A stretch of 64,000 bases of DNA from a phage (GCA_019338205.1 GCA_019338205.1_4761.1), one strand, 5' to 3'; shown: positions 8,698 through 45,815, counted from the stretch's first letter. Notes: generated from the sequence alone by a model not told the origin. Numbers and translations are program-made.

Positions 8698-8752
8698 AAA
8701 TTATGATCAAAACGAAGAAAGATCTTTAGAACATAGAAAATGTATCTTTGGT
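8698..8752. repeat. intergenic repeat element, copy A (aaattatgatcaaaacgaagaaagatctttagaa...)
   Basis: About 50 bp motif shared with 8847-8900 and 45762-45815. Confidence 0.5.
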
Positions 8753-8846
8753 TAATTATTAATCACTACATATTGTAACACAAATGTTATACTCCGTAGG
8801 AGTTCGCGAAGCGATATCCTTTTGTGTAGTTTTTACATGTATGATG

Positions 8847-8900
8847 AAATTATGATCAAAACGAAGACTTATCTTATAGAATAATAAAAATTTGTTTCGA
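8847..8900. repeat. intergenic repeat element, copy B
   Basis: aaattatgatcaaaacgaagacttatcttatagaataataaaaatttgtttcg; degenerate direct repeat of copy A about 150 bp upstream. Confidence 0.5.
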
Positions 8901-8966
8901 ACATTTATTAATCAATTATTGGAAGTGTTTTATTGCTCGCTGTGCTCGCTTCCGCTACGCGGATAC

Positions 8967-8995
8967 TTGTATTTGTTATTAACTTGTAGTATGAT
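8967..8995 (+). promoter_or_regulatory. candidate sigma70-like promoter (TTGTAT-17-TATGAT)
   Basis: -35/-10-like hexamers with 17 nt spacer, 25 nt upstream of ATG 9020. Confidence 0.35.
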
Positions 8996-9019
8996 ACTGC
9001 TTTCTATGGAGGAAATATT

Positions 9020-9607
9020 ATGTTTGACCAGTTACAAGATCTATTTGGAGTAAAACCACTTCGTAGATGTGCTTTAATAGGCTCTAGAAAAGCGCCTAGC
9101 GACATTTTGATAATGGCTAGTACCATTGGGAGGGTATTGTCAGAAAATCGCGTTGTAGCGCATTCTGGAGGGGCTTACGGTATGGACAATGCTTTCATGA
9201 AGTATTACGATCCAGATTATAGAAAAATTTTCATTCCAAATTGGAAGTTTTATGACCACAAGCATAACGGTCATGATGTTATTGCATGGCAAACCTTAGA
9301 ACAAAAAAATCTGGCGATGGATGAATTAGAACATGTTTATGATAATCCTCGTTCTATACCGTTATACATGCAAAATCTGTTTTCTAGAAATGTTGCTCAA
9401 GTCTTAGGTGAGACACTTGATGATCCGGTAGATTGTGTGATATTCTGGGCGAAAGAAGTTAATGGAATCGTTTCGGGAGGAACTAGAATTGCTGTTTATG
9501 TTGCCCGTAGACATGGGATACCATGTTTTAACTTATATCATCAAGAAAATAGATCCGCCGTCGAAAAAATCTTGGGCGGATCTGACTTGTCTTGGTTAGA
9601 TATTTAG
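9020..9607 (+). CDS. DprA/Smf-like Rossmann-fold (SLOG superfamily) protein
   Basis: 195 aa; ALIGSRKAP...HSGGAYGMDNAF and ...GIVSGGTRIAVYVARRHGIPCF resemble DprA-family motifs; occupies the 24-hoc variable region. Confidence 0.5.
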   Translation: MFDQLQDLFGVKPLRRCALIGSRKAPSDILIMASTIGRVLSENRVVAHSGGAYGMDNAFMKYYDPDYRKIFIPNWKFYDHKHNGHDVIAWQTLEQKNLAMDELEHVYDNPRSIPLYMQNLFSRNVAQVLGETLDDPVDCVIFWAKEVNGIVSGGTRIAVYVARRHGIPCFNLYHQENRSAVEKILGGSDLSWLDI

Positions 9608-10849
9608 TTAAGCGTTGTCAATCTCAAGCGGTGGCAGTTCGATTCCTAAAATGTAGGACATTTCAGAGCGTCCAGCCATTTTACCCCAATCGTCACCCTT
9701 GATGACCTGGTGTTCTTCCTGATCAACTTTTGATGTATATGGGTTGACAGAGAGTGAATAACGATTCATAATAGCTACATGATGCTGGAAGCTATTAGGG
9801 TCAATTACACTCTTATACGCGCCAGCGCCGTCGGCTTCTGTATATGGGGAGTAGAACAGAGAACCTACACTCTCCATATCACCGATCATGTGCTTACAAC
9901 CAACGAGCATATAATCGAAAGGTGTTGTCGTGTCTGCGTACACTTCCAGACCGCAACGTAGACGACCTTCGCTTAGAGCATTGTCGGTTTCTTCCATCCA
10001 ACCGGAAGATTGCAGGAGGCCAACCACGCGAGAAGACGCCAAAACGTATGTACCAGCAAAGGAGGAAGTCCGCAACATTTGATTGCTCATTTCGCAAGCA
10101 TAGCGGTAAAGTTCACGCGCTTGTGCTGGTGCATCCTGAACGCTAACGAGAGAAAGTACGCCGTCAGGGGTGATCCCTTTAATTTTATAGCGAGATGATA
10201 CAGTGATCAACTTCTGAATAATATCTTTGTTGATCTCTTCGGAAGCGATCGTAGCCAGAAGATCAATTACAGAGTTTTCAGAGTTGATTTGGCTTGCCTC
10301 AAGATCCTGCATCAATTCGGTCGTGAATGAGGTTTTCAGTTTACGAGAACCTACATTAACCTGCCATTTATCAAACTGCATAGAGGTAGACGAAATTTCG
10401 GTGTTTTTATCTTCAAAGTATTCTACCGATGCACAATCGCTATAGAAACGAATTTTGTTTGTCATTACGCCTTTAAAGATTGCAGCTTCTGGAGTTTCGG
10501 CATCTGCACCGACTGTACCAGCGGTCACAACTTCGTATACAACATTGTCTGATTTGAACAGTGCGCCTTCGTCATAAGATTTTTCTTTTGAAAACTCTTC
10601 GATCTCTGTGCGATCACCAGCCGCGCCACCGTAGGTTGTAGCAGTTCGGAAAGTCATCTGACCATCACGATTAAGATAACGTAGTCCGTACAATGCAGAT
10701 ACTGGTTGATCCGTTGGCTGGATTGCTACCAGATCAGAGAAAATCAGGTTGTTTACCGCGCGAGTTAATGATAATAGTTGCGGTCGCGCTGTCTGGTTAG
10801 CTACTGAGGAAGTAGATTCCCGCAACAGTTCAGTAAAAATATGAGTCAT
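9608..10849 (-). CDS. 24: capsid vertex protein gp24
   Basis: Start set at ATG 10849 (MTHIFTELLREST..., as in recalled T4 gp24 N-terminus); the track start at 10897 is a TTG. Paralog of gp23. Confidence 0.9.
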   Translation of the reverse strand: MTHIFTELLRESTSSVANQTARPQLLSLTRAVNNLIFSDLVAIQPTDQPVSALYGLRYLNRDGQMTFRTATTYGGAAGDRTEIEEFSKEKSYDEGALFKSDNVVYEVVTAGTVGADAETPEAAIFKGVMTNKIRFYSDCASVEYFEDKNTEISSTSMQFDKWQVNVGSRKLKTSFTTELMQDLEASQINSENSVIDLLATIASEEINKDIIQKLITVSSRYKIKGITPDGVLSLVSVQDAPAQARELYRYACEMSNQMLRTSSFAGTYVLASSRVVGLLQSSGWMEETDNALSEGRLRCGLEVYADTTTPFDYMLVGCKHMIGDMESVGSLFYSPYTEADGAGAYKSVIDPNSFQHHVAIMNRYSLSVNPYTSKVDQEEHQVIKGDDWGKMAGRSEMSYILGIELPPLEIDNA

Positions 10850-10886
10850 GTTTATGAATCCTGTATTTGCCTTAATGGATATATCA

Positions 10887-10894
10887 TATTTATA
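10887..10894 (-). promoter_or_regulatory. T4-type late promoter (TATAAATA) for gene 24
   Basis: Exact TATAAATA on minus strand 38 nt upstream of ATG 10849. Confidence 0.6.
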
Positions 10895-10933
10895 CAAAAA
10901 GAAAAAGGAATCCGAAGGATTCCAAAAATAAAC

Positions 10934-11086
10934 TTACTTCTTCCTAGAAACATTATCAACGCTACGGTTAACTTTGTTTACCAGATTAATTGCATGATCA
11001 GAACGAATAATTGCATAAGCTAATGCTAACATCAATTCGTTGTATTCCTTACGAGTCATAACATAGCTGTTTTCTTTCTTACTCAT
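10934..11086 (-). CDS. small hypothetical ORF (50 aa) in the 23-24 spacer
   Basis: ATG to TAA, MSKKENSYVMTRKEYNEL...; no clear RBS. Confidence 0.2.
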   Translation of the reverse strand: MSKKENSYVMTRKEYNELMLALAYAIIRSDHAINLVNKVNRSVDNVSRKK

Positions 11087-11361
11087 GCATTCCTCCTTAT
11101 GGAGAATTTTGGGTTAATTCAGGGAACAGCGTACCAAAACCAAAAATTACCTCTAGCGTCACGCTGAAATGTCATAACAAGGCCGATCTGTATATCTACC
11201 AAATCTATCCGACCCAATATCAACATGAACGCTCATTTCATTCATTGGTCCCTTTGTCATGCAGTTACTACGGAAATTGGTGGAATTGTTTGTTGTGTGT
11301 ATCTATTTTAGCTCCCAATAGAATATAGGCTTGCAACCTTATTTATAACGGGTTATAATAC

Positions 11362-11392
11362 GCAAAAAGGGAAGACCCTTTCGAGTCTTCCC
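11362..11392 (-). terminator. intrinsic terminator downstream of gene 23
   Basis: Perfect 8 bp stem GGGAAGAC / GUCUUCCC followed by UUUUUG on minus strand; a second hairpin at 11434-11452 immediately follows the gp23 stop. Confidence 0.65.
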
Positions 11393-11470
11393 TTTGGAAT
11401 TAACACTTTACACTGTCATAAGGTTTATGATAAGTCGGGCATTGCACCCGACAGGAGTTTTCAGGAATGA

Positions 11471-13057
11471 TTAGCAACCTTTAACCCATACACGACGGAA
11501 GTATGCGTTTTTACCTACGCTGTCTTTGCTCAACATACCGGAGGTGATGCGAGCGGACGGTGCCTGGGATTTGCTGTCTGCAAACGGGTTAATACCGATG
11601 CCGTAGCGAGTCTTGAAGCCCAGAACCGGGTGGAAAGACTGCGGGTCAGTTGCACGCAGCGGAGTCAGAGCAACATACGGAGCATAGTAGATACCAGCAT
11701 CCATTTCGTTGTCGCCTTTGTAACCTACAGTGAAGTAGTCCTGACGAGCATACTGGTCGATGAACACTTTGTACTTACCAGCCAGAACACCAGCGAAAAC
11801 AGCTTTAGTGGTGTCGGTATTCAGACCTTTTGCAGCACCCTGCATAGCAAGACTGATACCCTGATCAGCAGACGCCAGAATGTTTACAACGTTACGGGAA
11901 GCGATAACAAAGTTACCCGCACCGCGACCAGTCTGACGAGCGATTTCAGCAGCTTCTTTGTCGATCTGGTAGATCAGAGATTTGAAGGATTCACCAGCCC
12001 AACGAGCACCGCGAGTATCGATCGGGTCTTGCAGGTCAAATACACCAGCTTTAGAACCAACGGTCTGAGTCATACCAGTTTTACCAACCTGAGCGGTAAA
12101 GTTGATCACATCAACGATTTCGCGGTTGATTTCCAGCAGAACTTCGTTAGCCAGAATAGCATTCAGTTCGGCGTCAGCGTCCATACCGTGTACAGCACGC
12201 AGATCCTGCGCAACTTCGATAGAGTAACGGGCTTTCAGTTGGCGAGATTTCGCTTCAACAACCTGTTTGTCAATACGCATTGACATTTCAGCCCACGGGT
12301 TATTCTGAGAACCGTTAAAGCCTTCCTGAATTTCGGCAATGGAAGTCGCCATACCGAAAGCGATTTCAGCCAGTTTACCTTCTTCCATCAGCTTCATGAC
12401 AACTTCATCATCTGACTCGCTGCCAGCTTTGGCCGGGGTTACTGCGCCGGAGGTAACGTTTTGCAGATATGCAATGCCAGTTTCTGCGAAGGTGTGGTGT
12501 ACAATATCACCTGCTTCAATCTGATTATTGAGAGTTAGTTTAGCAAACGGAGTCCCGGTCGGAGAACCGACAATTGCACCTTTAGCAGCAAGAGAGCTAT
12601 GGAACGCATCAGGAGCATACATCGGATGGAATGCTTCTTTCGCCTGAGATGCCAGCGGGTTAGGACCATATACAGAACGGATTGCAAAGATCTGGCTAGT
12701 CGGGGTGCTCATCGGCTGAACGCCACAAATATCAAATGCGATCAGATTAGGGATAGCACGGCGAACCATACCGATAACAGCCGGACCTACGTTGGTGATT
12801 GCACCAGTAGTCTGACCAGACGCGATATTAGATGCGTCATAACCGTGGTCTCCAGCAACTTCGGCTTCTGCGATAAAGCCACCGAATGCTTCAACAACTT
12901 TTTCATCCTTATAGATCGGGTCTACAGCAAAATCCGCTTCCTGAGATTCCAGAATTTTAGCAACCAGTTTCTGCTTAGACGCAGTTGCGATTTCCGGCAG
13001 TTTTTCGTTCTCCAGCAGCGGGGACCATTTTTCCATCAGTTCTTTGGTAGTTTTCAT
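11471..13057 (-). CDS. 23: major capsid protein gp23
   Basis: 528 aa; near-collinear match to recalled T4 gp23 (LPEIA, GPAVIGMVRRAIPNLIAFDICGVQPM, YYAPYVALTPLR, GIGINPF). Confidence 0.97.
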   Translation of the reverse strand: MKTTKELMEKWSPLLENEKLPEIATASKQKLVAKILESQEADFAVDPIYKDEKVVEAFGGFIAEAEVAGDHGYDASNIASGQTTGAITNVGPAVIGMVRRAIPNLIAFDICGVQPMSTPTSQIFAIRSVYGPNPLASQAKEAFHPMYAPDAFHSSLAAKGAIVGSPTGTPFAKLTLNNQIEAGDIVHHTFAETGIAYLQNVTSGAVTPAKAGSESDDEVVMKLMEEGKLAEIAFGMATSIAEIQEGFNGSQNNPWAEMSMRIDKQVVEAKSRQLKARYSIEVAQDLRAVHGMDADAELNAILANEVLLEINREIVDVINFTAQVGKTGMTQTVGSKAGVFDLQDPIDTRGARWAGESFKSLIYQIDKEAAEIARQTGRGAGNFVIASRNVVNILASADQGISLAMQGAAKGLNTDTTKAVFAGVLAGKYKVFIDQYARQDYFTVGYKGDNEMDAGIYYAPYVALTPLRATDPQSFHPVLGFKTRYGIGINPFADSKSQAPSARITSGMLSKDSVGKNAYFRRVWVKGC

Positions 13058-13090
13058 GTTCTTTAAACCTTGTTTGTTGTTAACCTAAAG

Positions 13091-13098
13091 TATTTATA
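13091..13098 (-). promoter_or_regulatory. T4-type late promoter (TATAAATA) for gene 23
   Basis: Exact TATAAATA on minus strand 34 nt upstream of gp23 ATG. Confidence 0.7.
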
Positions 13099-13116
13099 AA
13101 GTAGATTTGAATTACA

Positions 13117-13911
13117 TTAGATGAAATTCAGGTAGCGGGATACGCCGGAATCTACAGTTGCCTTTTTATCTGATTTTTCGACAGCTTCTGCAATAACATT
13201 CAGCTTGTCGGCATCAGTATTTAGTGATTCTTCAATCTTCGCTGGTTTGTCTTCTTTCTTAGCAACCATTTCGACAATTGCAGTTAATTTCTTATCGAAA
13301 GTTTCGCTATATTCCAGACCTTCAATCAGCGCGGTTACTTTTTCTTTCTGAGTATCGGAAAGATCACGAGTGCTTTCATTGATCGCTTGTTCGCGCTTCA
13401 TGCCACGAATTTCGCTTTCAAGTTGCAGTTTGGCATCAAAGAGTTCAGAGGTTTTTTCTTTTTCTTCTTTGAGTGCTTCGTCAAGTTCAGCAACAACGTC
13501 TACAGATTCTTCCGGTACTACAACATTGTGAGTAACGAAAACATCTTTCAGAGAACCAATCAGGGATTCGCACAGATCCGCTTTAATATTACGGGTAACG
13601 GCTTCTTTATTTTCTGCCAGCCATTTAGCGCCTAAGTGATTCAGGAATTTATCTGCATCTTCGTACAGTTTGGTTTCAATCTCGGTGCGTGCTTCTTCGA
13701 CCTTTGATTCTACCAGTTCATCGGCTTTAGCGGCGATTTTTTCAATGTGGCTTTCTGCCAGAGCAACAGCATTAGCTTTTACCGCCTGAGCGTAGATAGC
13801 ACCAAAATTTTCTTTTACTTCCGGCGACAGTTCGACGGATTCAAACAGGTCATCGAGAGCAACGTCTACGGTGATCTGTTTTGCTTCTTCGAGCAGCATT
13901 TCTTTAAGCAT
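13117..13911 (-). CDS. 22: prohead scaffold core protein gp22
   Basis: 264 aa, acidic, helical; between 21 and 23 as in T4. Confidence 0.8.
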   Translation of the reverse strand: MLKEMLLEEAKQITVDVALDDLFESVELSPEVKENFGAIYAQAVKANAVALAESHIEKIAAKADELVESKVEEARTEIETKLYEDADKFLNHLGAKWLAENKEAVTRNIKADLCESLIGSLKDVFVTHNVVVPEESVDVVAELDEALKEEKEKTSELFDAKLQLESEIRGMKREQAINESTRDLSDTQKEKVTALIEGLEYSETFDKKLTAIVEMVAKKEDKPAKIEESLNTDADKLNVIAEAVEKSDKKATVDSGVSRYLNFI

Positions 13912-13942
13912 GGTTATAACCTTCTTGTTGATAACGACGTTA

Positions 13943-14638
13943 TTATTTATAGCGTTTAGATAACGCTTCTGCGAGCGCCATAAACGCGCTATTATTCGAT
14001 TCTACGATGTTTTGTTGTGAGGCTGTAGGGTTAGTCACTTTTTCGGTTTTATCGCTTTCTGGTGCGTCTGACGCGCTAGAATCGCTATCCATTGACTCAA
14101 CCACCGGAGTTACCCACGCATCAGGTGCGCTCGGACCCCATACAACATCAACACCAACCGTCAACACAAAACCTTCCTGTACAATATTGTATCCGCGACC
14201 GGAGTCTTTTAAACGACCCAACCCACGGGAGGAAACGCCAGGAATCCAGCCAGCGCGAATCAGTGCAGCAAGTTTATCACCTGCGCCTTTATCCCCTTCA
14301 ATAACACGGGCTTTACCCATCACGTTATTACCTTCCCACCATAATTTTTCAATTATGATGCAAGCATTAGATGGATCTGGCATTGCTCTTGCTGGGTGAT
14401 TAAGTTCGCCTAGAGCTTGATGTGTCTCAACTTGTTCATGTATGTATTTAGTAACCGCATTTTCTAGAACACTGCGAGGATACCAGCGTTTATTGCGGTT
14501 TACTGTTTCGGCTTGCAGGAAAATCCCTTGAATATAGAGATTTCCTGTAGCCTTATCATCAAATGATTCAAGCAATGACGAACTACCGCGAGCACAAGGA
14601 ACGCCCCATTGTTCGATCAGTAATTCGTTCTTTTCCAT
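13943..14638 (-). CDS. 21: prohead core protease gp21
   Basis: 231 aa; ...LGELNHPARAM... motif and position as T4 gp21. Confidence 0.85.
   Translation of the reverse strand: MEKNELLIEQWGVPCARGSSSLLESFDDKATGNLYIQGIFLQAETVNRNKRWYPRSVLENAVTKYIHEQVETHQALGELNHPARAMPDPSNACIIIEKLWWEGNNVMGKARVIEGDKGAGDKLAALIRAGWIPGVSSRGLGRLKDSGRGYNIVQEGFVLTVGVDVVWGPSAPDAWVTPVVESMDSDSSASDAPESDKTEKVTNPTASQQNIVESNNSAFMALAEALSKRYK
13944..13951 (-). promoter_or_regulatory. T4-type late promoter (TATAAATA) for gene 22
   Basis: Exact TATAAATA on minus strand overlapping gp21 stop, 33 nt upstream of gp22 ATG. Confidence 0.55.
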
Positions 14639-14649
14639 GTTGTTTCCTG

Positions 14650-15057: not shown

Positions 15058-15069
15058 GTTGGCTTCCTA

Positions 15070-16875: not shown

Positions 16876-16902
16876 TATTCACCTCGAATTGGGAGAAATT
16901 AG

Positions 16903-16921
16903 GCGGGGAACTTCTCCCCGC
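16903..16921 (-). other. intercistronic stem-loop between genes 19 and 20
   Basis: gcgggga-acttc-tccccgc inverted repeat; weak U-run, so attenuator rather than strong terminator. Confidence 0.35.
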
Positions 16922-16933
16922 ATGATAATATAT

Positions 16934-17428: not shown

Positions 17429-17447
17429 AATTGATATTCCTTAATAG

Positions 17448-19505: not shown

Positions 19506-19536
19506 TAGAATTTCCTCATCTTTTTATGCATTATCG

Positions 19537-31008: not shown

Positions 31009-31018
31009 AAATACATAC

Positions 31019-31044
31019 AAAAAAGCCGCCCACAAGGACGGCTT
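31019..31044 (-). terminator. intrinsic terminator closing the inserted methyltransferase cassette
   Basis: gccguccuugugggcggc hairpin followed by UUUUUU on minus strand, immediately after the MTase stop. Confidence 0.55.
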
Positions 31045-31888: not shown

Positions 31889-32220
31889 TATTTAACCTTT
31901 GCTGTGACGGTAACGCTATGTCCCAAATAAACATGAGACATAAAGAACACAAAGTTTTTAAATTGCGGATTCTTACGAATCCATCGTTTCAATTTTCGAA
32001 TGCAAGTTATACGATGATCATAATTAGAATAACTAAATTCAATACCCTGTTTCATCATCTCGTGCATTTCTTCGTATGTGTGCCATTGGTTATCATGTTT
32101 ACAAAACCAATGAGTACCATAGAGTTTAGGATCTTGTGCACGTAGACCATAGTAATGCTTTTGCATTGGGAACTTAGCTTTATTCATTGTATAATGCAGT
32201 TTAATATTTACGCGTGCCAT
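31888..32220 (-). CDS. hypothetical protein (110 aa), co-transcribed with the MTase
   Basis: Stop overlaps MTase start (ATGA); His/Tyr/Trp-rich; no motif recognised. Confidence 0.4.
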   Translation of the reverse strand: MARVNIKLHYTMNKAKFPMQKHYYGLRAQDPKLYGTHWFCKHDNQWHTYEEMHEMMKQGIEFSYSNYDHRITCIRKLKRWIRKNPQFKNFVFFMSHVYLGHSVTVTAKVK

Positions 32221-32465
32221 TTTCTAGTTCCCCACATACCGAAAGTTGGATTATACACAAAATAGATAGCTTCGTCGATAGTCTTGAATCGTTTAGTGTC
32301 ATTCATGAAGTTGATACCCTCCCATAGTTCATCGGTGTAATCGGCTAGTGATGAATGAGTATGATCGATGATCTCTCCAATCTTTTCACCGTTCGCGATC
32401 ACATCCCAACCGCAAGGGGATACCTGAATTGCTTCACAATTATCTGTAAATTTACGACGTGCCAT
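32208..32465 (-). CDS. hypothetical protein (85 aa), first gene of inserted cassette
   Basis: Strong RBS GGAGG; overlaps next ORF by 13 nt. Confidence 0.4.
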   Translation of the reverse strand: MARRKFTDNCEAIQVSPCGWDVIANGEKIGEIIDHTHSSLADYTDELWEGINFMNDTKRFKTIDEAIYFVYNPTFGMWGTRKWHA

Positions 32466-38841: not shown

Positions 38842-38854
38842 CAAAACCCCATCT

Positions 38855-39394: not shown

Positions 39395-39395
39395 A

Positions 39396-39965
39396 TTATC
39401 CCTCACTTCTTCTAACATAATCTCTTAACTGTTTACTCCACACATCCCAATTTCCAAAAACGGTTTGAGTATAAACTTTCTCTATTGTGTGTTCGGTTAC
39501 TACCGGAGGCGGATTAGTTTCACCAGCACCCTCTCGGCTACTGGAACCACCACTATTTCCTTCACCAGAACCACCAGAAGACTCTGAAACAGATTGGATA
39601 TAGGTTAGGGTTACTTTATAAGTATAAACCTCCTGTAGACGTGTAGGAGCGTTAAAATAATATAGATCTGCGGTAGTTGGATCTGGTAAATCATCAAAAC
39701 TTCCGGCAGATTTTTTAATTCTATCTTTCGTTATATATTTAAGAGAATCCGCGCCAAGCGAAAAACTATCCAGATACTCACCAGATATTTTAGTTTCTTC
39801 AACGGTAACGCCCTTATTAGGGCGATACTCGCTGATCTTAAACTCTTTAATCGTGTATGTGGTATTTGCATCTGGTGGCGTTGCTTTATAAGAGAACACC
39901 ACCTCAAAGATTTCTCGCTCGCTGATATCCTCCAATTTTGAACTCATCGGAAGAATTTCAACCAT
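39396..39965 (-). CDS. conserved hypothetical protein, gp5.1 position (189 aa)
   Basis: Immediately downstream of gp5; Gly/Ser-rich linker SESSGGSGEGNSGGSSS; assignment by position only. Confidence 0.45.
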   Translation of the reverse strand: MVEILPMSSKLEDISEREIFEVVFSYKATPPDANTTYTIKEFKISEYRPNKGVTVEETKISGEYLDSFSLGADSLKYITKDRIKKSAGSFDDLPDPTTADLYYFNAPTRLQEVYTYKVTLTYIQSVSESSGGSGEGNSGGSSSREGAGETNPPPVVTEHTIEKVYTQTVFGNWDVWSKQLRDYVRRSEG

Positions 39966-39973
39966 TAGTTACC

Positions 39974-41773
39974 TCACCCAAGATCAATACGGCTACCATC
40001 AATTTTAACTGTACCAGATGCAATATCTTTAACGCTTGCACCACAATTACGGGACCAGTCACCATTAACCTGATCTGATTTAGTGCCATTGACGGTCATA
40101 TTAAAATTACCCTCAACGGTTAAATCATAGTTACCTTTAATTGTTTCGGTAGTGTTACCCTCGATCATTAATTCAGCATTACCCTTGACGTTAGCCGTCA
40201 AATTGGCGTCAAGCTGCGCGGTAACATCACCTACAACATGCATATTTGCAGTACCTTCAACGGTCTGATTAACATTGCCACGAATAAATTCAGTGACGTT
40301 ACCATCAACGGTTTGCATCACATTACCCATATAATAAACTTGCGCGTCACCTTCAACAACAACTTGCAGATTGCCTTTAACGTTGACTTTGCGACCTTGC
40401 TTAACGATCAAATAATCATCACCTTCAATCTTTTCTACCCTCGTTCCGTCCGGTCTGGTTTCTTCAAATGTACCAGAAGGATGTTTACGATGATAACGCT
40501 CGTGAGAAGGAGTATCATCAATCTCGATAATATGACCGCTCTCTGACTCGTACACATGGTTATATGGATACCTTGCAGAATACGAACTCTTAGGCTCTTT
40601 AAACATGATTCGTGTGTCTTGTGGGGTAAACGGTGCTTCTGGGTCTTCTTCTGCTCTCTGCGTCTTATAGGCAGCAATACGGGCATTTCTCAAACGTGCT
40701 CTCGGATCATCTGAAACAGTTTCCTCTTTCTTAGGAGCAATTACGCCATATGATTCTAAGTTGCCAGTAAGAATAATTTTAGAAACACGGCTGGAGCGTC
40801 CTGGAGTTTGATTAGCCCATACTGATTGACGTAATCCATCATAGGCTTGTTTCCATTCTTCCGCTAACATCGCAGCAAGACTATTCTTAAATTTACCCAA
40901 TCCACCAACGCCCATTTGAAACGCCATATTTTCTAATGCCATACGACGTGAGGCATTACATTTATTATAGACAGGTGCAATTCGTGGATGTTTGCGCATA
41001 TCACGACGAGTCTTTTCTATATCGTCAGCAAATACTTTACTAACTTCTTCGGCGGTAAGTCTTCCGTTTGTAACTTCACGCCCTACCAGCTTAGAAAGTT
41101 CATTATTGATAATACCCAGATCACTGGTTTTCTTATAAATGATCAAATGCCCGATGCCTATTGTCGGATATCCTTCTGAATCAAGATACCATTTCTCGCG
41201 ATATCCCTCATCGCCCCGCAGCATTTTTTCTATTGTAAAATCAGGATTATCATCAACCGGAATTTGGTCTAATGGCTCGTCGTCTGGATTTACTGCAACT
41301 CCAGTGTTTTCATCTCGAATATAGACACTATCAGGTTTTGTTGTTTGTCCGGTTTCTGGGTTAATACCGCCACGAGCAAGAATATTAACATCATTACCAA
41401 TATAACGAGGATATGCACCAGAAGGGTCGCAAAAACCTTCTGTAGTGAGTGGTTTCTCTGTATATTGTCCGGCAATAGTACCCAGAATAACGCAGTTTAA
41501 ATAACGTTCATCTAAAGCCAAACCAAATACCATTGAACCTTCAACAATACCAGTAGGGCTTTGACCTATACCGGAGATCGCCGCGCTTGTAATATCTTGT
41601 ACTGGCGTAATCCATAATAGATCTTCGGTTGGAAGACCTTGAATGTCACCGTGTGCGGATAGCGAAGGATGTATACCATGAATCCTAACCTGAACACGCC
41701 CCAGCATTAATGGGTCTTCCCTGTTTTCTACAATTCCGGTAAACCATTTAACGGAGTTATTAAACATTAGCAT
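39974..41773 (-). CDS. 5: baseplate hub / cell-puncturing protein gp5 with lysozyme domain
   Basis: 599 aa; OB-fold-like N-terminus, central T4-lysozyme-like domain (GYPTIGIGHLI), C-terminal VxGxxxxxN beta-helix repeats. Confidence 0.9.
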   Translation of the reverse strand: MLMFNNSVKWFTGIVENREDPLMLGRVQVRIHGIHPSLSAHGDIQGLPTEDLLWITPVQDITSAAISGIGQSPTGIVEGSMVFGLALDERYLNCVILGTIAGQYTEKPLTTEGFCDPSGAYPRYIGNDVNILARGGINPETGQTTKPDSVYIRDENTGVAVNPDDEPLDQIPVDDNPDFTIEKMLRGDEGYREKWYLDSEGYPTIGIGHLIIYKKTSDLGIINNELSKLVGREVTNGRLTAEEVSKVFADDIEKTRRDMRKHPRIAPVYNKCNASRRMALENMAFQMGVGGLGKFKNSLAAMLAEEWKQAYDGLRQSVWANQTPGRSSRVSKIILTGNLESYGVIAPKKEETVSDDPRARLRNARIAAYKTQRAEEDPEAPFTPQDTRIMFKEPKSSYSARYPYNHVYESESGHIIEIDDTPSHERYHRKHPSGTFEETRPDGTRVEKIEGDDYLIVKQGRKVNVKGNLQVVVEGDAQVYYMGNVMQTVDGNVTEFIRGNVNQTVEGTANMHVVGDVTAQLDANLTANVKGNAELMIEGNTTETIKGNYDLTVEGNFNMTVNGTKSDQVNGDWSRNCGASVKDIASGTVKIDGSRIDLG

Positions 41774-41784
41774 AATTAATCACC

Positions 41785-42339
41785 TTACACATCAGCCTTT
41801 TCCATTTCTCGAATGAATGCGTTAATAAATTGTTTAATTTGTGTAGGGTCTATGATCTTGATCTTGCGTCGTTCCTCATTGCGGAGGATCGCATCTTCCA
41901 GTGTGTCTACCGCCGATAATGCACCTTGAAACTGCAAATGACGATGATGAATATCCCCTTTATCATACCAATTGCTTGATCCTTTCGGATATTCTGTAAG
42001 ATTCCAATACTTGTTTCCGTCAATATCAACATGGTATAATACTTGATTTCCTCCTACATTTGCATATCGTTGTTCGGCTGATTCATATGCTGTCTCTTGA
42101 TCGGTGATCCAGTCATGAAACGGATCGTATACGTCATTAAGCATCAGCAAGATCCAGTAAAGTTGTTGGTTTCCGTATACTTCATATGCAACTTGTTCCG
42201 GTCGTGGACTACCTTGAATGTAATATGTTTGTATGTTATAATCAGAAATTATTGCGTTGAAATATGCGCGGTAATTGCGCACAATGTCAGTAATCATCTT
42301 GCCGTTGTATTCAATGGCAGGGAAGAAAGAAAAGAGCAT
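41785..42339 (-). CDS. 53: baseplate wedge protein gp53-like
   Basis: 184 aa (T4 gp53 196 aa); immediately upstream of gp5 on same strand. Confidence 0.6.
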   Translation of the reverse strand: MLFSFFPAIEYNGKMITDIVRNYRAYFNAIISDYNIQTYYIQGSPRPEQVAYEVYGNQQLYWILLMLNDVYDPFHDWITDQETAYESAEQRYANVGGNQVLYHVDIDGNKYWNLTEYPKGSSNWYDKGDIHHRHLQFQGALSAVDTLEDAILRNEERRKIKIIDPTQIKQFINAFIREMEKADV

Positions 42340-42371
42340 TTTATCACCCTCAATTGATAAATAGTATTATG

Positions 42372-42379
42372 TATTTATA
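42372..42379 (-). promoter_or_regulatory. T4-type late promoter (TATAAATA) for gene 53
   Basis: Exact TATAAATA on minus strand 33 nt upstream of gp53 ATG in the divergent region. Confidence 0.5.
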
Positions 42380-42394
42380 ATAAAGGGTGCTAAA

Positions 42395-43090
42395 ATGGAC
42401 TATCAAAAACATTATGATCGATTAATTGAACGCGCAAAGCATAGAACGCTTGAAGGATATAAAGAAAAACATCATATTATTCCTCGTTGTATGGGAGGCG
42501 ATGATAGTCCAGAAAATATAGTTGAGTTAACGGGGTCTGAACATTTTGTTGCTCATCAACTTTTAGCAAAAATGCATCCAACACATCACGGAATTGTACA
42601 TGCGGCGAAAATATTGATGGGGTCTACCAACTATAACAATAAACAATTTGAGTGGGTAAGAAAACTTGCGGTCGAGACTTCAAGAAAATTTCATACAGGA
42701 AGAAAAAGATCCGAAGAGACTAGACGCAGAATATCAGAAGCAACTAAAGGAAAGAGAAAAGGAATTAAATTATCTGAGGAACATCGACAGAAATTATCTG
42801 CTTCATTAAAAGGTAGAGTGTTTACAGAAGAACATAAAAGAAATATTGCGTCAAGAGAAATTACACAAGAATGGAGAGACAACATCTCTAAAGCGGGTAA
42901 GGGTAGAAAGTTGTCACAAGAAAACGTAGAGAAATGGAAACGTATTCATAACACGCCAGAAATGAAACAAAAATATAGTGAATTGTCAAAGTCTCGTCCG
43001 TATTTCACCTGTCCTCATTGTGAAAAAACAGCCAATCAGGGAAATTATGTTAGATGGCATGGTGACAACTGCAAGAAGAAGGTGGTATAA
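42395..43090 (+). CDS. HNH homing endonuclease (Mob-like, NUMOD-type repeats, C-terminal Zn-ribbon)
   Basis: 231 aa; HNH core KHHIIPRCMGGDDSPENIVELTGSEHFVAH; repeated basic modules (GRKRSEETRRRISEATKGK, KLSEEHRQKLSASLKGR); CPHC; inserted between 53 and 4. Confidence 0.75.
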   Translation: MDYQKHYDRLIERAKHRTLEGYKEKHHIIPRCMGGDDSPENIVELTGSEHFVAHQLLAKMHPTHHGIVHAAKILMGSTNYNNKQFEWVRKLAVETSRKFHTGRKRSEETRRRISEATKGKRKGIKLSEEHRQKLSASLKGRVFTEEHKRNIASREITQEWRDNISKAGKGRKLSQENVEKWKRIHNTPEMKQKYSELSKSRPYFTCPHCEKTANQGNYVRWHGDNCKKKVV

Positions 43091-43563
43091 TGGGTAATTG
43101 CAACACATATAAGGGTAAATATAGACCTGAAAACCCGGAGAAGTATAAAGGCGACCTGAAAAAAATCGTCTACAGGTCAAGTTGGGAATTACATATAATG
43201 AAATTTTTAGACCGCAATCCTAGAGTTGCAAAATGGGGATCTGAGACCGTAGTAATTCCTTATGAGTCATCAACAGACGGAAAAAGACACAGATACTTTA
43301 TGGATTTTTACGTTAAGTTTGATGATGGCAAGGAGCATTTATGGGAAGTTAAACCAGCTAAAGAGACAAGGCCACCGGAAAAGCCAAAAAGAATGACCGC
43401 GAAGACAAAGCAACGATATATGCATGAAGTATGGACATACACAAAAAATACTGAAAAATGGTTAGCTGCCGTGAAATTATGCCAAAAGCATAACATGGAG
43501 TTTAAGATCATAACCGAACATGCATTAAAGAAAGTGTTTGGCTTTAAAGGGCTTAACAAATAG
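43090..43563 (+). CDS. 4: head completion nuclease gp4-like (PD-(D/E)xK fold)
   Basis: 157 aa; candidate D...EVK catalytic motif (FMDFYV...LWEVKP); position next to gene 2 as in T4. Confidence 0.55.
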   Translation: MGNCNTYKGKYRPENPEKYKGDLKKIVYRSSWELHIMKFLDRNPRVAKWGSETVVIPYESSTDGKRHRYFMDFYVKFDDGKEHLWEVKPAKETRPPEKPKRMTAKTKQRYMHEVWTYTKNTEKWLAAVKLCQKHNMEFKIITEHALKKVFGFKGLNK

Positions 43564-43574
43564 AGGATAATATT

Positions 43575-44396
43575 ATGAGCGTATTTGAAATAATCACAGA
43601 AGACGAAAAGCCGTCTCCCCAAAAACGAAAGTCTAAACAGTGGGTCGAATTGGGTGTAGAATTTGCGAAAGCAAAAGCCAAAGGCATGACAGCTAAAGCA
43701 TTTGCAGATTCTAAGGGAATAGCCTATGCGACTTTCACTAAAAGTATGTCTCGTTATGCCAGCGAAATTAAAACAGCAATAGAAGTTGAAAAACTAAAAG
43801 GGAAAAGTGCAAAGGGTCTCAATAAGCAGCAACGCGCAATGATGATGATTAATGATTTTCGTGCGTCTATGCGTGCTGTATCAAAGAGTCGTCCTAAAGA
43901 AAAATCACAGGAATGGTTTACTAAAACAATAAAAGCGGGAATAAAGGGACACCAGATTGTAAAACCGCAAGTAGGGCGAATCTATACCTTTATGTATGAT
44001 GCTAAGTATAAAGACACTTTGCCATATTGGGATGTTTTCCCACTGATCATTTGTCTGGGTGATTCTAAGACAAAGGCGGGTAATACTGTAATGCTGGGTC
44101 TTAACTTACACTATGTAACGCCTAAAGCCCGTCAGCAGTTTCTGGAAGCACTTTTAAAGCAATATGCATCTACTCCTACCTTGAGTAATAAAACACGCTT
44201 AAAAATCAAATGGAGCGATGTAAAAGGTATGCGTGGTAGTGACCACATGATCAAAGCATATCTACCGGGACACATTAAAACAAAACTTGTTGAGATTAGC
44301 CCGAAAGACTGGAGCAATATTATCTACCTTAACACATATAAATTTGTTTCTAAAGGTAAAAACTATGATGCAAGGAAGGTGTGGAAGGATGCTTAA
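43575..44396 (+). CDS. 2: DNA end protector protein gp2
   Basis: 273 aa (T4 gp2 274 aa); basic; RBS AGAGGA; synteny 4-2-3-1. Confidence 0.7.
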   Translation: MSVFEIITEDEKPSPQKRKSKQWVELGVEFAKAKAKGMTAKAFADSKGIAYATFTKSMSRYASEIKTAIEVEKLKGKSAKGLNKQQRAMMMINDFRASMRAVSKSRPKEKSQEWFTKTIKAGIKGHQIVKPQVGRIYTFMYDAKYKDTLPYWDVFPLIICLGDSKTKAGNTVMLGLNLHYVTPKARQQFLEALLKQYASTPTLSNKTRLKIKWSDVKGMRGSDHMIKAYLPGHIKTKLVEISPKDWSNIIYLNTYKFVSKGKNYDARKVWKDA

Positions 44397-45417
44397 TATT
44401 AATTCCGTGGGGAGCAATCCCCACGTTTATTATCTTCGTCAACCGGAAGAAATAGAATACAGAGTAAACAAGGTAACAAAATCTCCTAGAGAATTTGCGG
44501 ATAAAGTTATTGAAAGGTGTAAACTTGTCGACCATACATTCTTAGGATTTTCTGGAGAATGGAAAGGAAAATTGACTAGATCTGTTATCCAATGCAATAA
44601 GCATGGAACTGTCTATGATGTTTCCAGTAATAGTTTCTATGCTAAAAAGGTTATTGTTGGTTGCCCTCAATGTAGGGGAGTTATGACAGAAGAGGAAGCA
44701 ACCAAATTCATTGAAGAAAAATGTAAAGATCTTGATTATGAATTTTTGGGATTTGTTGGTGGCTGGAAATCACAAATTACTAAGATGATTCTTAGATGCA
44801 AGAAACATGACCATATTTGGAAGAATACAAAGTTCTTTGATTTTAAAAATCATGGTACATGTGGTTGTAAGAAATGTGCGGCTGAACAATTTAAGACGGA
44901 ATATGTCGTTCCCGTGGAAGATGCACTATCTAGAATAGAAGATAAATGTAAAAAGTTAGGGTATGAATATATAGGTGTCGATGGTGAATGGATAGGTACT
45001 GCAAATTCATGGATAAAACTTAAATGTACAAAACATGACGCAGAATTTTCTGTAAGATATTGTACGTTCAACAGAAATGCTAAAGGGTGTCCGAAATGTA
45101 GTTCTTCTGGCTATCGTCCATCTGAGATGGGATATTTTTATATCCAGACGTTAGATGATAAATTTATAAAGTTTGGTGTAACCAATGAATTACCGGAAAC
45201 CAGAATGAAACAACATATGCAGAAATCTAAGTTTGTTCACAAACTTGTTTACGTCAAACAAAGTGTTGATGGCTGGATTCCGTGGGAACTTGAAAAGGAA
45301 ATAAAGAGAACTTATCATTGTGGCGTTGTTGATAAATCCATGTTGAAAGATGGATACACAGAAACTTTACCAATCACGGAACTTGATAACATAATTAAAT
45401 TAGCTGATACATATTAA
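44389..45417 (+). CDS. three-fold Zn-ribbon repeat protein with C-terminal T5orf172 (GIY-YIG-like) domain
   Basis: Three about 60 aa repeats (FLGF.GEW.G...C.KH...C.C, each ending CPQC / GCKKC / GCPKC) then GYFYIQTLDDKFIKFGVTNE...; start at ATG 44389 (RBS GGAAGG); inserted between 2 and 3. Confidence 0.5.
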   Translation: MLNINSVGSNPHVYYLRQPEEIEYRVNKVTKSPREFADKVIERCKLVDHTFLGFSGEWKGKLTRSVIQCNKHGTVYDVSSNSFYAKKVIVGCPQCRGVMTEEEATKFIEEKCKDLDYEFLGFVGGWKSQITKMILRCKKHDHIWKNTKFFDFKNHGTCGCKKCAAEQFKTEYVVPVEDALSRIEDKCKKLGYEYIGVDGEWIGTANSWIKLKCTKHDAEFSVRYCTFNRNAKGCPKCSSSGYRPSEMGYFYIQTLDDKFIKFGVTNELPETRMKQHMQKSKFVHKLVYVKQSVDGWIPWELEKEIKRTYHCGVVDKSMLKDGYTETLPITELDNIIKLADTY

Positions 45418-45423
45418 AATTAA

Positions 45424-45446
45424 GCCCGTCATTGACGGGCTTTTTA
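45424..45446 (+). terminator. intrinsic terminator
   Basis: gcccgtc-att-gacgggc hairpin followed by TTTTT. Confidence 0.55.
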
Positions 45447-45701
45447 TTATAGATCGATAGCATGAGCATAACCATGTAAGAAGTCTTTTAATTCTTCCTT
45501 ATTGGTAACACGCTGTAAAATCTCTAATGCCTTGTCGCGATCACGTAATGCACCTGAAAGGGATTTTATTTGGTCATCCCTTTCTGCAATCTGCTTAAGC
45601 AGATCTGTATTGCATTTAGACAAATAGAGAACTTCACCCCGCAATGTTGCCAATTCGTTATCCAGACGATCATAGAGTTTTAACAAAATGTCTTCTGTCA
45701 T
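45447..45701 (-). CDS. hypothetical coiled-coil protein (84 aa), convergent
   Basis: Heptad-like Leu spacing; only minus-strand gene inside the plus-strand 4-2-3-1 block. Confidence 0.35.
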   Translation of the reverse strand: MTEDILLKLYDRLDNELATLRGEVLYLSKCNTDLLKQIAERDDQIKSLSGALRDRDKALEILQRVTNKEELKDFLHGYAHAIDL

Positions 45702-45761
45702 AAGAAGTCCTCGTATAGTACCCGTTTTATTTATTACTGTATAAAAATATAGTTATTGGTT

Positions 45762-45815
45762 AAAATATAACCAAAACGAAGAAAGATCTTTAGAATAATA
45801 GAAAATTTGTTTCGG
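45762..45815. repeat. intergenic repeat element, copy C
   Basis: aaaatataaccaaaacgaagaaagatctttagaataatagaaaatttgtttcgg; same motif as 8698-8752 and 8847-8900. Confidence 0.5.

Follow-up and report, generated by a model that had tools for sequence, protein, structure and literature searches.

A conserved intergenic cassette of RB49-like coliphages, shared with an Escherichia coli prophage lineage, with a predicted RNA hairpin

Introduction

An unannotated non-coding cassette occurs four times in RB49-like coliphages and once in an unrelated prophage lineage. It is carried by a 64,000 nt stretch of phage DNA (hereafter the window) that derives from an RB49-like T4-type coliphage (Krischvirus). 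We tentatively interpret it as a cis-acting RNA hairpin cassette that host factors would handle on read-through or leader transcripts, a model that we regard as plausible but short of probable.

Phages of the RB49 type are candidates for therapy and a reference for T4-like gene regulation in which the T4 middle mode is lacking. Early PeSL promoters, late TATAAATA promoters and terminators make up the regulatory repertoire known for them. The cassette adds a fourth, highly conserved non-coding module upstream of three genes: the late virion genes 3 and 36 and one that is recombination-mediator-like. The presence of the same module in the control/origin region of an unrelated prophage points to an unrecognised host-dependent control layer that moves between phages and that would act on RNA structure or unusual initiation. 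Its four sites of 77 nt offer a small, concrete experimental target for compensatory-mutation designs.

Results and discussion

Copies and boundaries of the element

The window holds exactly three copies of the element (A, B and C), each about 77 nt long and all on the plus strand. An unfiltered profile HMM matched positions 8691-8767, 8841-8915 and 45756-45832 (E = 3e-16, 2e-12 and 3e-18, respectively), and in the 228 kb searched the best match beyond the true copies reached only E = 0.09. A covariance model recovers the identical three copies, self-BLAST of the window reveals none besides them (24-26 nt cores, E 1e-6 to 1e-8), and the 11-mer CAAAACGAAGA is found exactly at 8708, 8857 and 45772, each time on the plus strand. 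An earlier note on this DNA had described a motif of about 50 bp at these three places. Its presence, location and strand stand, but the unit measures about 77 nt and is accompanied by GC hairpins. Likewise, the count of three is correct for the window but not for the genome, since RB49 carries a fourth copy (D) before gene 36.

The element has a sharp 5′ border at TTGRTTA and ends with TTARTCA, and its 5′ arm is near-invariant (TTGRTTAAA..AYCAAAACGAAGA...ATCTT.TAGAAT). Four segments can pair as an outer stem (S1:S4) and an inner stem (S2:S3) that are parted by an internal loop of 3-5 nt per side. In copy A (8691-8767, identified by HMM, covariance model and fold), these are S1 TTGATTA (8692-8698), S2 TGATCAA (8704-8710), S3 TTGGTTA (8748-8754) and S4 TTAATCA (8759-8765); the core CAAAACGAAGA spans 8708-8718 and is overlapped by GAAGA-N4-TCTT (8714-8726), which is followed by TAGAAC (8727-8732). 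Copy B (8841-8915; HMM and covariance model) lies 149 nt 3′ of A, with its core at 8857-8867 and TAGAAT at 8877-8882. It has one additional base ahead of TAGAAT and, in the window, a private T-to-G change in S1 (ATGATGA). Copy C (45756-45832; HMM, covariance model and fold) is composed of S1 TTGGTTA (45756-45762), S2 TAACCAA (45768-45774), the core (45772-45782), TAGAAT (45791-45796), S3 CGGTTA (45813-45818) and S4 TAGTCA (45824-45829).

As the earlier note had proposed, all three reside in spacers upstream of plus-strand genes: A and B in the 413-nt spacer 5′ of a DprA-like gene (9020-9607), and C in the 190-nt spacer 5′ of gene 3 (45892-46482). Copy D, outside the window, occupies RB49 (NC_005066) positions 150000-150076 and has the same orientation as gene 36, with the gene 35 terminator on one side and the gene 36 late promoter on the other; every copy is co-oriented with its downstream gene. 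The paralogues A-D are about 70-80% identical, and all retain one 41-nt block and one fold. Between C and D, identity of about 94-97% continues through the GC hairpins.

Hairpins, terminators and promoters that flank the element

Twin short GC triloop hairpins (4-6 bp) follow each unit and are part of the repeat. After copy A (8792-8814, plus strand), they read CTCC-GTA-GGAG and TCGC-GAA-GCGA, then the U-rich stretch TATCCTTTTGTG. The hairpins after B (8935-8963, plus strand) include TCCGC-TAC-GCGGA (8951-8963), which precedes TACTTGTATTTGTTATT and is terminator-like in our scan. After C (45830-45855, plus strand; z = -3.9), GTGCC-TCC-GGCAC is followed by GTCGC-AAA-GCGAC (45843-45855) and AATTGTTAAT, and this second hairpin is also terminator-like in the scan. 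Of the four phage copies, B, C and D have a U-run after the GC hairpins, and in these same copies the second hairpin has the GC-rich stem and U-run of an intrinsic terminator (8951-8963 in B, 45843-45855 in C and L006 87-99 in D), where 0.0-0.2 would be expected. The terminator scan did not flag the second hairpin of A (4-bp stem) or that of the prophage copy (no U-run). Hairpins of the CGCGAAGCG type are found in RB49 solely adjoining the elements. Where GAA or AAA triloops were observed (the second hairpin in A, C, D and L020, and each of the two hairpins in prophage type X), they are on the plus strand.

On the 5′ side, the strong intrinsic terminator of an upstream 145-aa gene (8615-8634, plus strand, T-run to about 8640; 7-bp stem with 5 GC pairs, then TTTTTT) lies 55 nt ahead of copy A and is annotated as a terminator in GEC-3S and G37-3. 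A strong bidirectional terminator (45422-45442; 9-bp stem with 6 GC pairs, T-runs on both sides) lies 310 nt 5′ of C. The gene starts are located 36-105 nt past the stem-loops, behind one more promoter. Near the DprA-like gene, a sigma-70-like candidate read from the sequence (TTGTAT-17-TATGAT, 8967-8995, plus strand) matches 8/12 positions, which is under the scan threshold; it belongs to the context and lies outside the repeat. Also part of the context is the late-promoter-like AATAAATA (45863-45870, plus strand), 22 nt 5′ of the gene 3 start codon; the equivalent site before gene 36 in RB49 is a perfect TATAAATA.

Conservation among Krischvirus genomes

Of 59 sequenced Krischvirus genomes, 58 have the element at four places according to BLAST searches, and a homologue exists in one prophage lineage. 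The element is therefore neither confined to three sites nor unconserved in relatives, and the proposal that it represents a distinct, conserved intergenic class is borne out. Conservation inside the genus says little by itself, because Krischvirus is so uniform (at least 95% identity). Among near-identical genomes, polymorphism clusters in the predicted loops, namely AAAA[T/C][A/G]T, the 3′ internal loop and the apical loop.

Since the 3′ arm resembles a degraded reverse complement of the 5′ arm, and the uniformity of the genus weakens the argument from within-genus conservation, one could view the element as the decaying relic of an old inverted duplication, spread by descent and occasional horizontal transfer and now functionless. 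We find this very improbable. The four diverged paralogues retain the 41-nt block and the fold, the prophage homologue is 81% identical whereas the tail-fibre gene shared with the prophage has only 37% amino-acid identity, and variable sites counted on the alignment are fewer inside the elements (3/152) than in the flanking spacer (about 13/232). A MITE or other mobile repeat was also rejected: the element has 7-bp inverted ends, yet none of five insertion contexts exhibits a target-site duplication, and the positions are fixed.

A homologue in a prophage control region

The homologue, 81% identical over 75 nt, belongs to an uncharacterised E. coli prophage that is present in 54 of 5426 complete E. 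coli genomes. Neither the E. coli genomes in this set that lack the prophage nor 185,579 species-representative genomes contain the element. The prophage copy is situated in a 1.27 kb CDS-free control/origin region, with a predicted extended -10 promoter 40-79 nt upstream and, in both sub-types, the next intrinsic terminator about 250 nt downstream. The genes common to phage and prophage are limited to the tail-fibre gene and an LprI-like gene; small shared patches are a 34-nt terminator (97% identical) and 387 nt of the LprI-like gene (95.6%). No DNA-binding protein common to both was found, which points to a host-side or factor-free mechanism.

Similarity between the prophage sub-types stops exactly at the 3′ edge of the element, where differing iteron/origin modules begin, and a perfect GATTAATTATTAATC palindrome appears again 1 kb away in the same control region. 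These observations could indicate that the element acts as DNA, either as two quasi-palindromic operators (TTGRTTA-N5-TRAYCAA plus a decayed inverted copy, centres about 56 bp apart) or as a cruciform-prone homology patch or boundary for modular exchange among coliphages. The outermost half-sites (TTGRTTA/TAATCA) are indeed the best-conserved inverted pair, both strands fold better than shuffles, and the small patches common to phage and prophage imply ongoing exchange. However, the half-site and palindrome were not found in other intergenic regions, so the binding site for a phage regulator suggested by the earlier note would have no regulon past the four copies, nor is there a candidate regulator in common with the prophage. 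Furthermore, occupancy of four places in nearly all Krischvirus genomes means essentially no presence/absence polymorphism, target-site duplications are absent, the long hairpin is unfavoured with DNA parameters, and compensatory changes across 40 nt with tolerance of G-T are unexpected of a protein site. Overall, action as DNA seems unlikely to us.

The location of the prophage copy about 0.4 kb from an iteron array and an AT-rich stretch also brings to mind a transcription-primed (R-loop) replication origin that would replace the T4 MotA-dependent oriF/oriG design. Its layout would comprise a weak promoter and then AT-rich DNA that unwinds, with the displaced strand carrying stable GAA-triloop hairpins. 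The GAA/AAA triloops are on the plus strand, the iterons differ between prophage sub-types as origins would, and T4-type origins are not known to have been mapped outside T4. However, a terminator intervenes between the prophage copy and the iterons, and the phage loci lie 4-5 kb from the positions of T4 oriE, oriF and oriG as estimated from maps. We give this scheme very little credence.

Folding and covariation

All five types (A, B, C, D and prophage X) are predicted to form an AU-rich, irregular hairpin of 19-24 bp. Despite differing 3′ arms, this long hairpin is the RNA minimum-free-energy fold of the plus strand in every type (z -1.3 to -2.4), whereas with DNA parameters it is not the optimum. 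The 3′ arm drifts in sequence while pairing is retained (85.7% paired cells in alignment A3), and two pairs covary with G-U intermediates. Pair 16-64 is CG in 7 sequences, AU in 6, GC in 2 and GU in 2, with zero breaks; pair 18-62 is CG in 7, UA in 4, UG in 4 and other in 2, and some prophage variants disrupt it. The covariation score is 0.222, compared with 0.132 +/- 0.013 for shuffles (0/500 reach 0.222) and no more than 0.109 for slid registers. A local-hairpin alternative is weaker (0.070 versus 0.052). As we read these states, the G-U pairs of the plus strand are intermediates between the Watson-Crick pairs of other copies, and on the minus strand they correspond to A-C mismatches.

Every copy and both prophage sub-types share one architecture, a long hairpin followed by two GC triloop hairpins, with stems of unrelated sequence. 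In prophage variant L108, the apical 17 nt are deleted and the -10-like motif is gone, but the stem is retained; copy A, too, retains the stem despite having TAGAAC in place of TAGAAT.

There are only about four independent lineages, so the covariation rests on few events, and 3 of 14 pairs are unpaired in half of these lineages. RNAalifold retains just two small local hairpins (-2.7 kcal/mol). The minus strand of B and X folds nearly as well as the plus strand, and the pairing may thus be a purely palindromic property of DNA. Quasi-palindrome templated repair could also generate an unselected mimic of compensatory change.

A possible role as a cis-acting RNA

In the model that we tentatively prefer, each copy would head a non-coding cassette that, with its terminator tail, measures about 100-125 nt and is read as RNA from the gene-sense strand. 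We infer that the element is transcribed, that its structure acts at the RNA level and that a host factor reads it. In the phage, the structure would act in cis on the few transcripts that pass the strong upstream terminator; in the prophage, it would act on a long untranslated leader with its start about 40-80 nt upstream. The hairpin might serve as a signal for processing, stability or termination control that is handled by host machinery, and its dimensions suit a two-turn hairpin of the RNase III type. The GC hairpins could then cap the new ends or halt residual polymerase, and as a consequence the downstream gene (DprA-like, gene 3 or gene 36) would be uncoupled from upstream transcription. 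Two features sit less comfortably with an RNA. Because a strong terminator precedes each phage copy, the whole hairpin would be made only on read-through RNA. Also, the contrast between an invariant 5′ arm and a drifting 3′ arm calls for an extra assumption, namely sequence-specific recognition of one arm.

Another possibility is that the elements are a family of trans-acting small RNA genes yielding RNAs of about 60-120 nt (hairpin, twin hairpins and U-tail) that target a host or phage RNA or protein. Their orphan intergenic position between terminators, the terminator-like 3′ ends of B, C and D, and a prophage setting unrelated to any neighbouring gene would all fit, and the invariant 11-mer could serve as a seed. 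We nevertheless consider such genes doubtful: no conserved promoter is found 5′ of S1 and the only internal one is weak, an RNA made from that internal promoter would comprise the portion with the lowest conservation, the terminators have weak stems of 4-5 bp, and the prophage twin hairpins have no U-run. Nor does the element match Rfam. The four functions offered by the earlier note are all putative; a structured or small RNA is the best supported among them, through the pairing covariation.

A more ambitious proposal is a new, horizontally portable phage ncRNA module, common to a virulent T4-type phage and a temperate siphovirus-like prophage, in which twin triloop hairpins accompany a hairpin whose 5′ arm is sequence-specific. 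Host factors would read it as a processive termination-control or retroregulation signal, or it would act as a short trans-acting RNA; in its radical version, it would be a transcription-primed origin of MotA-less T4-type phages. We put this forward as an outside prospect.

Promoter-like features

Sequence scans of the copies reveal no TATAAATA, TTGACA-N17-TATAAT or TGCTT box, as the earlier note had stated. Specifically, a T4-type late promoter, which would have TATAAATA at about -10, was rejected because no copy has this motif and the late-type motifs lie 3′ of the cassette. A T4 MotA-dependent middle promoter, in which the box (a/t)(a/t)TGCTT(t/c)A near -30 accompanies a -10, was rejected because the elements have no TGCTT.

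The location of each phage copy between a strong upstream terminator and a terminator-like hairpin suggests that transcription may be initiated in between. The element could be an autonomous mini transcription unit, in which a weak or regulated sigma-70 promoter (-35-like T.A.CA, a spacer of 17-18 nt and TAGAAT as the -10) would start transcription at a purine about 7 nt past the -10 and lead into an attenuator. Initial transcription would cover the drifting 3′ arm, and attenuation would fall to the twin hairpins and U-run. The product would be an RNA of about 60-90 nt, or else some non-late transcription would reach the next gene, similar to the ‘stop, then restart’ of PeSLs. This is the sole promoter-like match common to B, C, D and X, and strong conservation extends from S1 to just beyond TAGAAT (about -47 to +3), a promoter-sized interval after which the types diverge. 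One prophage variant has TATAAT instead of TAGAAT, and all copies are co-oriented with the downstream gene. In addition, RB49 reportedly lacks MotA-type middle promoters, and tblastn with a T4 AsiA query, a weak test, revealed no homologue in RB49.

The match is only 8/12 (3/6 in the -35), however, a score too low for the scan threshold and one that AT-rich DNA often yields by chance, and an extended -10 is absent. Conservation peaks in the ‘spacer’, which is atypical of promoters; copy A has TAGAAC in all genomes examined; L108 keeps the remainder of the element without the -10; and the covariation of S2:S3 and S1:S4 is left unexplained. Genuine RB49-type early promoters in the window are near-consensus and look wholly different. 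The ‘third promoter class’ of the earlier note is favoured by the sigma-70 match (T.A.CA-17/18-TAGAAT) and disfavoured by copy A and L108, and we judge initiation within the element to be the main rival reading, possible but rather unlikely.

Comparison with known systems

Rfam 15 gave no match for the whole window at gathering thresholds, and searches at E up to 10 (both loci) or up to 1 (prophage region) returned sub-threshold noise only. We found no description of the cassette in the literature.

Our preferred reading as a host-handled RNA hairpin invites comparison with the RNase III processing hairpins of phages, which include the T7 R-sites and the lambda sib and N-leader sites. Such hairpins are irregular, span about two turns and contain an internal loop; they are intercistronic or in leaders, sense-oriented and present in several diverged copies per genome. 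They are portable between unrelated phages because a host enzyme reads them, and lambda sib, like the element, is relevant only in transcripts that pass a terminator. Assuming transcription, the predicted 19-24 bp hairpins would provide the irregular double-stranded RNA of at least about 20 bp in a sense transcript that RNase III would need. The element differs in its very AU-rich stems and its loops of 3-5 nt per side. T4-type phages are not known to depend on RNase III.

The cis-acting antitermination RNAs of the HK022 put and boxA type are likewise about 70 nt long. They precede terminators in the early leaders of phages and affect host RNA polymerase with no need for phage proteins. The put fold has two hairpins, whereas the element has one. 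The boxA consensus is GCUCUUUAACAA, and GAUCUUUAGAA agrees with it by eye at 8/12 positions. A boxA, the Nus-factor antitermination site, was rejected, since GAUCUUUAGAAU (A, C and D), UAUCUUUAGAAU (X) and UAUCUUAUAGAA (B) carry 3-4 mismatches or an insertion relative to this consensus; another count of the boxA-like stretch gives 2-3 mismatches, the first positions among them, and places the insertion in copy B. One substitution reportedly suffices to inactivate boxA (PMC7665894).

REP, BIME and ERIC sequences resemble the element as imperfect, intergenic palindromes that often follow terminators, are co-transcribed and affect mRNA ends. They are host-chromosome families of tens to hundreds of copies, whereas the element was not found in prophage-free E. 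coli genomes or in the species-representative set.

The PeSL cassettes of RB49 and phi1 (Arbiol et al., 2010, PMC2839356; Comeau et al., 2014, PMC4122927) combine near-perfect TTGACA-N17-TATAAT sigma-70 promoters with an adjacent stem, typically G(n)-loop-C(n), and have a Shine-Dalgarno sequence and start codon at their 3′ end. A genome contains about 50 of them, most of which precede ORFans in hyperplastic regions. In the window, the promoters of true PeSLs match 10-12 of 12 positions. Plus-strand scans of the element find no near-consensus sigma-70 promoter, its best internal match being 8/12, and it has no significant similarity to the PeSLs of the window. It also differs in its 77-nt conserved quasi-palindrome, which PeSLs lack, in its mixed-sequence triloop hairpins (GTA, TAC, GAA), and in number and location, its four copies falling within the virion-gene part of the map. 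What the two have in common is the phage group, a small composite build in intergenic DNA that joins a promoter-like stretch to potentially attenuating stem-loops, and repetition along the genome. Either could provide homology patches for modular exchange, and a recombination-linker role is possible for the element.

A conserved palindromic element in Krischvirus genomes

Inspection of the window sequence confirmed the three intergenic sites reported in an earlier note, and the 11-mer CAAAACGAAGA is found exactly at positions 8708, 8857 and 45772. The proposed length of about 50 bp proved too short, as the conserved unit is an AT-rich imperfect palindrome of about 77 nt with sharp ends (TTGRTTA and TTARTCA). 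An unfiltered profile-HMM search returned three matches in the window (E-values of 2e-12 to 3e-18), corresponding to copies A (8691-8767) and B (8841-8915) before the DprA-like gene and copy C (45756-45832) before gene 3. There was no other match with an E-value below 0.09, and self-BLAST of the window revealed no further copy. A covariance model agrees with the HMM and adds weak reverse-strand matches at the same loci because the element is palindromic.

Around these sites the sequence matches Escherichia phage RB49, along with 58 other Krischvirus (Straboviridae) records, at 98-99% identity. Relative to the RB49 record (approximately 106.4 to 44.8 kb of NC_005066) the window is in antiparallel orientation, so that hoc, 24.3, the DprA-like gene and genes 4, 2, 3, 1 and 57 are on its plus strand. 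The complete RB49 genome contains a fourth copy (D) at 150000-150076, flanked by the terminator of gene 35 and the late promoter of gene 36, TATAAATA. This copy lies on the opposite genome strand and so is again co-oriented with the gene that follows. BLAST places the element at four positions in 58 of the 59 Krischvirus genomes. There is only a very slight chance that it is a relic.

The element is real, more extensive than first described, and unannotated at its sites in the records inspected. Rfam yielded no match, either for the whole window at gathering thresholds or for the two loci and the prophage region described below at permissive E-values. No description of the element was found in the searchable literature, where its sequence strings matched only unrelated primers, and no Krischvirus transcriptome paper was found. 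Its separation from late promoters, MotA promoters and early cassettes was upheld. The promoter-early stem-loop (PeSL) cassettes of RB49 and phi1 are similar in logic, but they are defined by a near-consensus TTGACA-N17-TATAAT promoter that the element lacks, and it is therefore not a PeSL in that sense.

A common predicted hairpin

Aligned copies share a nearly invariant 5′ block, TTGRTTAAA-NNRTNA-YCAAAACGAAGA-NNN-ATCTT(T)-TAGAAT, followed by a few purines, beyond which the copy types diverge. The divergent 3′ part nevertheless still pairs with the 5′ part. With RNA parameters, the optimum for all five types (A, B, C, D and a prophage homologue, X) is the same long irregular hairpin (z of -1.3 to -2.4), in which an outer stem of 6-7 bp between segments S1 and S4 is separated by an internal loop of 3-5 nt per side from an inner S2:S3 stem that extends into the core and carries an apical UAGAAU. 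With DNA parameters this long hairpin is lost and the optimum consists of small local hairpins.

In a colinear alignment comprising 17 distinct sequences, 85.7% of cells are paired. Pair 16-64 occurs as four pair types (CG, AU, GC and GU) with zero breaks, and pair 18-62 as three (CG, UA and UG) with two breaks. Covariation scores 0.222, compared with 0.132 ± 0.013 for shuffles and at most 0.109 for slid registers. This evidence is limited: the sequences represent only about four independent lineages, and half of these leave 3 of the 14 pairs unpaired. The competing local fold proposed by RNAalifold has one covarying pair and scores 0.070. On the plus strand, the G-U pairs are what would be expected midway between Watson-Crick states seen in other copies, an observation that leans towards a plus-strand RNA.

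The few polymorphisms among the near-identical Krischvirus genomes sit in predicted loops, in a genus whose genomes are too alike for a decisive conservation contrast. In copies C and D, two adjacent S1-S2 loop positions (window 45763-45767 and homologues; AAAA[T/C][A/G]T) take 4 or 5 states among genomes that elsewhere share 97-99% identity. C and D, which are 87 kb apart, show the same state in two of four genomes, and gene conversion between the copies may explain such matches.

Small open reading frames at the copies (MIKTKKDL in A, a 53-aa TTG-initiated frame after B, and frames of 22-24 aa after C and D) were rejected as candidates, since they are not conserved between copies. The hydrophobic 53-aa frame (window 8892-9053), which runs from the 3′ arm of copy B across the start of the DprA-like gene, is probably spurious.

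Genomic setting of the phage copies

Copy A begins 55 nt after a strong terminator (8615-8634) and copy D begins 15 nt after the gene 35 terminator of RB49. A strong bidirectional terminator (45422-45442) lies 310 nt before copy C, with an antisense 84-aa gene in between.

Two short GC triloop hairpins follow each copy (fold z of -2 to -4.5), and we use the term cassette for the element together with these hairpins and, where present, a U-run. They include CTCC-GTA-GGAG and TCGC-GAA-GCGA after A, TCCGC-TAC-GCGGA after B, GTGCC-TCC-GGCAC and GTCGC-AAA-GCGAC after C, and GTGCC-TAC-GGCAC and GTCGC-GAA-GCGAT after D. Hairpins of the CGCGAAGCG type occur in RB49 only at element sites. In B, C and D the second hairpin and its U-run are flagged as terminator-like, against an expectation of 0.0-0.2. 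A trans-acting small RNA is a decidedly improbable reading.

The promoter-like signal belonging to each following gene lies downstream of the cassette: TTGTAT-17-TATGAT for the DprA-like gene, AATAAATA for gene 3, and the late promoter for gene 36. No conserved promoter was found upstream of S1 across the copies, and the near-late 8-mers of A (TATTAATA) and C (TAAAAATA) are missing from B and D. We considered whether the element itself might be a promoter leading to an attenuator, a possibility that we rank second to a cis-acting RNA and regard as rather unlikely. A promoter would account for the promoter-sized invariant block that ends at TAGAAT, for the variant that has TATAAT there, for the placement of copies between terminators and for their co-orientation. 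However, the match is 8 of 12 positions with a poor -35, the spacer would be the most conserved part, copy A does not fit, and the covariation is left unexplained.

A homologue in an E. coli prophage lineage

Among INPHARED phages only the 59 Krischvirus records carry the element, and no other isolated phage does. It is absent from PLSDB plasmids, and 185,579 species-representative genomes gave chance matches only. In IMG/VR and JGI/ENA metagenomes, pattern scans picked up contigs of Krischvirus and about 35 others, 20-45 kb long, that carry X; beyond Krischvirus and this one prophage lineage, matches were attributable to chance. Over 75 nt, X and copy A share 81% identity. X is chromosomal, and unannotated, in 54 of 5426 complete E. 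coli genomes. Strain DEC5A of E. coli has it inside a prophage of about 34 kb, with a serine recombinase gene and hicAB at the boundaries. No close isolated relative of this prophage was found; its best terminase match is 43% identical and its putative initiator has no match.

The region that holds X is free of CDSs for 1.27 kb, and a predicted divergent promoter pair, whose rightward member has an extended -10, lies 40-79 nt upstream of X. On its 3′ side X has two GAA-triloop hairpins of its own and AAAGTGAT boxes, as well as an intrinsic terminator at a distance of about 250 nt, an iteron array and an AT-rich stretch. The iterons differ by prophage sub-type (AGTGTAGGTTT, CCTTGTACATC, ACGGGGA and TTCAGGGGCAAAAAT), and similarity between sub-types stops exactly at the 3′ edge of X. 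That X and its phage counterparts form an origin module is highly improbable. The different arrays occupy the same position in variants L083 (6470-6600), L020, L043 and L055, a pattern suggestive of origin and initiator being swapped as modules. Near L083 7005, the perfect 15-bp palindrome GATTAATTATTAATC is similar to the S3-S4 part of copy A.

Further segments shared by the prophage and RB49 are a gp37-like tail fibre (934 residues with 37% amino-acid identity), an LprI-like gene (95.6% identity across 387 nt; 32027-32413 of prophage variant L084 versus RB49 158303-158689, RB49p262) and a 34-nt terminator at 97% identity, and exchange between these phages is therefore ongoing. The identity of the LprI-family (lysozyme-inhibitor-like) gene indicates very recent gene exchange between a temperate and a virulent coliphage. 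The terminator match (L084 13018-13051) is to the terminator after hoc.

A shared regulator was sought by tblastn of all prophage ORFs against RB49, which matched only the tail fibre and LprI-like gene and no DNA-binding protein; Pfam searches of neighbouring proteins gave no informative result. Other intergenic regions contain no additional lone operator sites. Judged by eye, the element appears to fit neither the spacing nor the sequence of FNR, CRP, ArcA, Fur, IHF, LexA, DnaA, RcsB, PhoP, OmpR, Ter, dif, hix/gix or attC sites, P1, P22 or 434 operators, or the oriC 13-mer. We consider a DNA-level operator or recombination linker improbable.

A candidate cis-acting RNA cassette

We tentatively favor a cis-acting RNA cassette read by host machinery, a model under which the shared fold, the covariation that includes G-U intermediates and the restriction of polymorphism to loops are all accounted for, as is retention of the stem in copy A, which has TAGAAC, and in variant L108, from which the apical 17 nt are deleted. 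A structured RNA also fits the recurrence of the hairpin with two GC hairpins of unrelated stems and, in the prophage, the position within a leader. The model is weakened by the location of the phage copies downstream of strong terminators, and by the much stronger conservation of one arm compared with the other. As a concrete mechanism we chose an RNase III-type processing or retroregulation hairpin, with ends that would be capped by the GC hairpins, because this best fits the dimensions and the post-terminator position; phage RNase III sites are similar in shape.

We would file the element as a composite intergenic regulatory cassette of T4-type phages, of a kind already known, and see a small chance that it is a genuinely new host-dependent RNA module. 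It is moderately interesting as a compact, conserved, horizontally shared and directly testable unit.

Other features of the window

Near-consensus PeSL promoters between 47958 and 63400 (e.g. 47958, 49953, 50915 and 62153) are followed by almost identical 5′ leaders (ACACCCATCGAAACGAAACAC...GGAGAATCAAAATG), and the homogenised unit therefore comprises promoter, leader and ribosome-binding site. Descent of the element from a shared early-gene leader (CCATCGAAACGAAAC...AGGAGAATCAAAATG) was convincing by eye and was rejected, as local alignment scores did not exceed those of shuffles.

Near-identical intrinsic terminators of a AGCCGTCCTTCGTGGCGGCTTTTTT-like family occur at 7460-7486, 8615-8640 and 31015-31043 (minus strand). 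Two genes are missing at the corresponding RB49 positions: a 231-aa HNH/NUMOD3-type homing-endonuclease-like gene (42395-43090) between the gene 53 and gene 4 homologues, and a gene for a CapR-domain protein of about 350 aa with Cys4 motifs (44365-45417) between gene 2 and the 84-aa antisense gene, roughly 340 nt upstream of copy C. Finally, about 250 nt without a CDS separate two genes at 60640-60900; this stretch, which has a strong terminator (AAGCCATCCGAAAGGGTGGCTTTTT) at its end, immediately ahead of a PeSL promoter, could encode another non-coding RNA.
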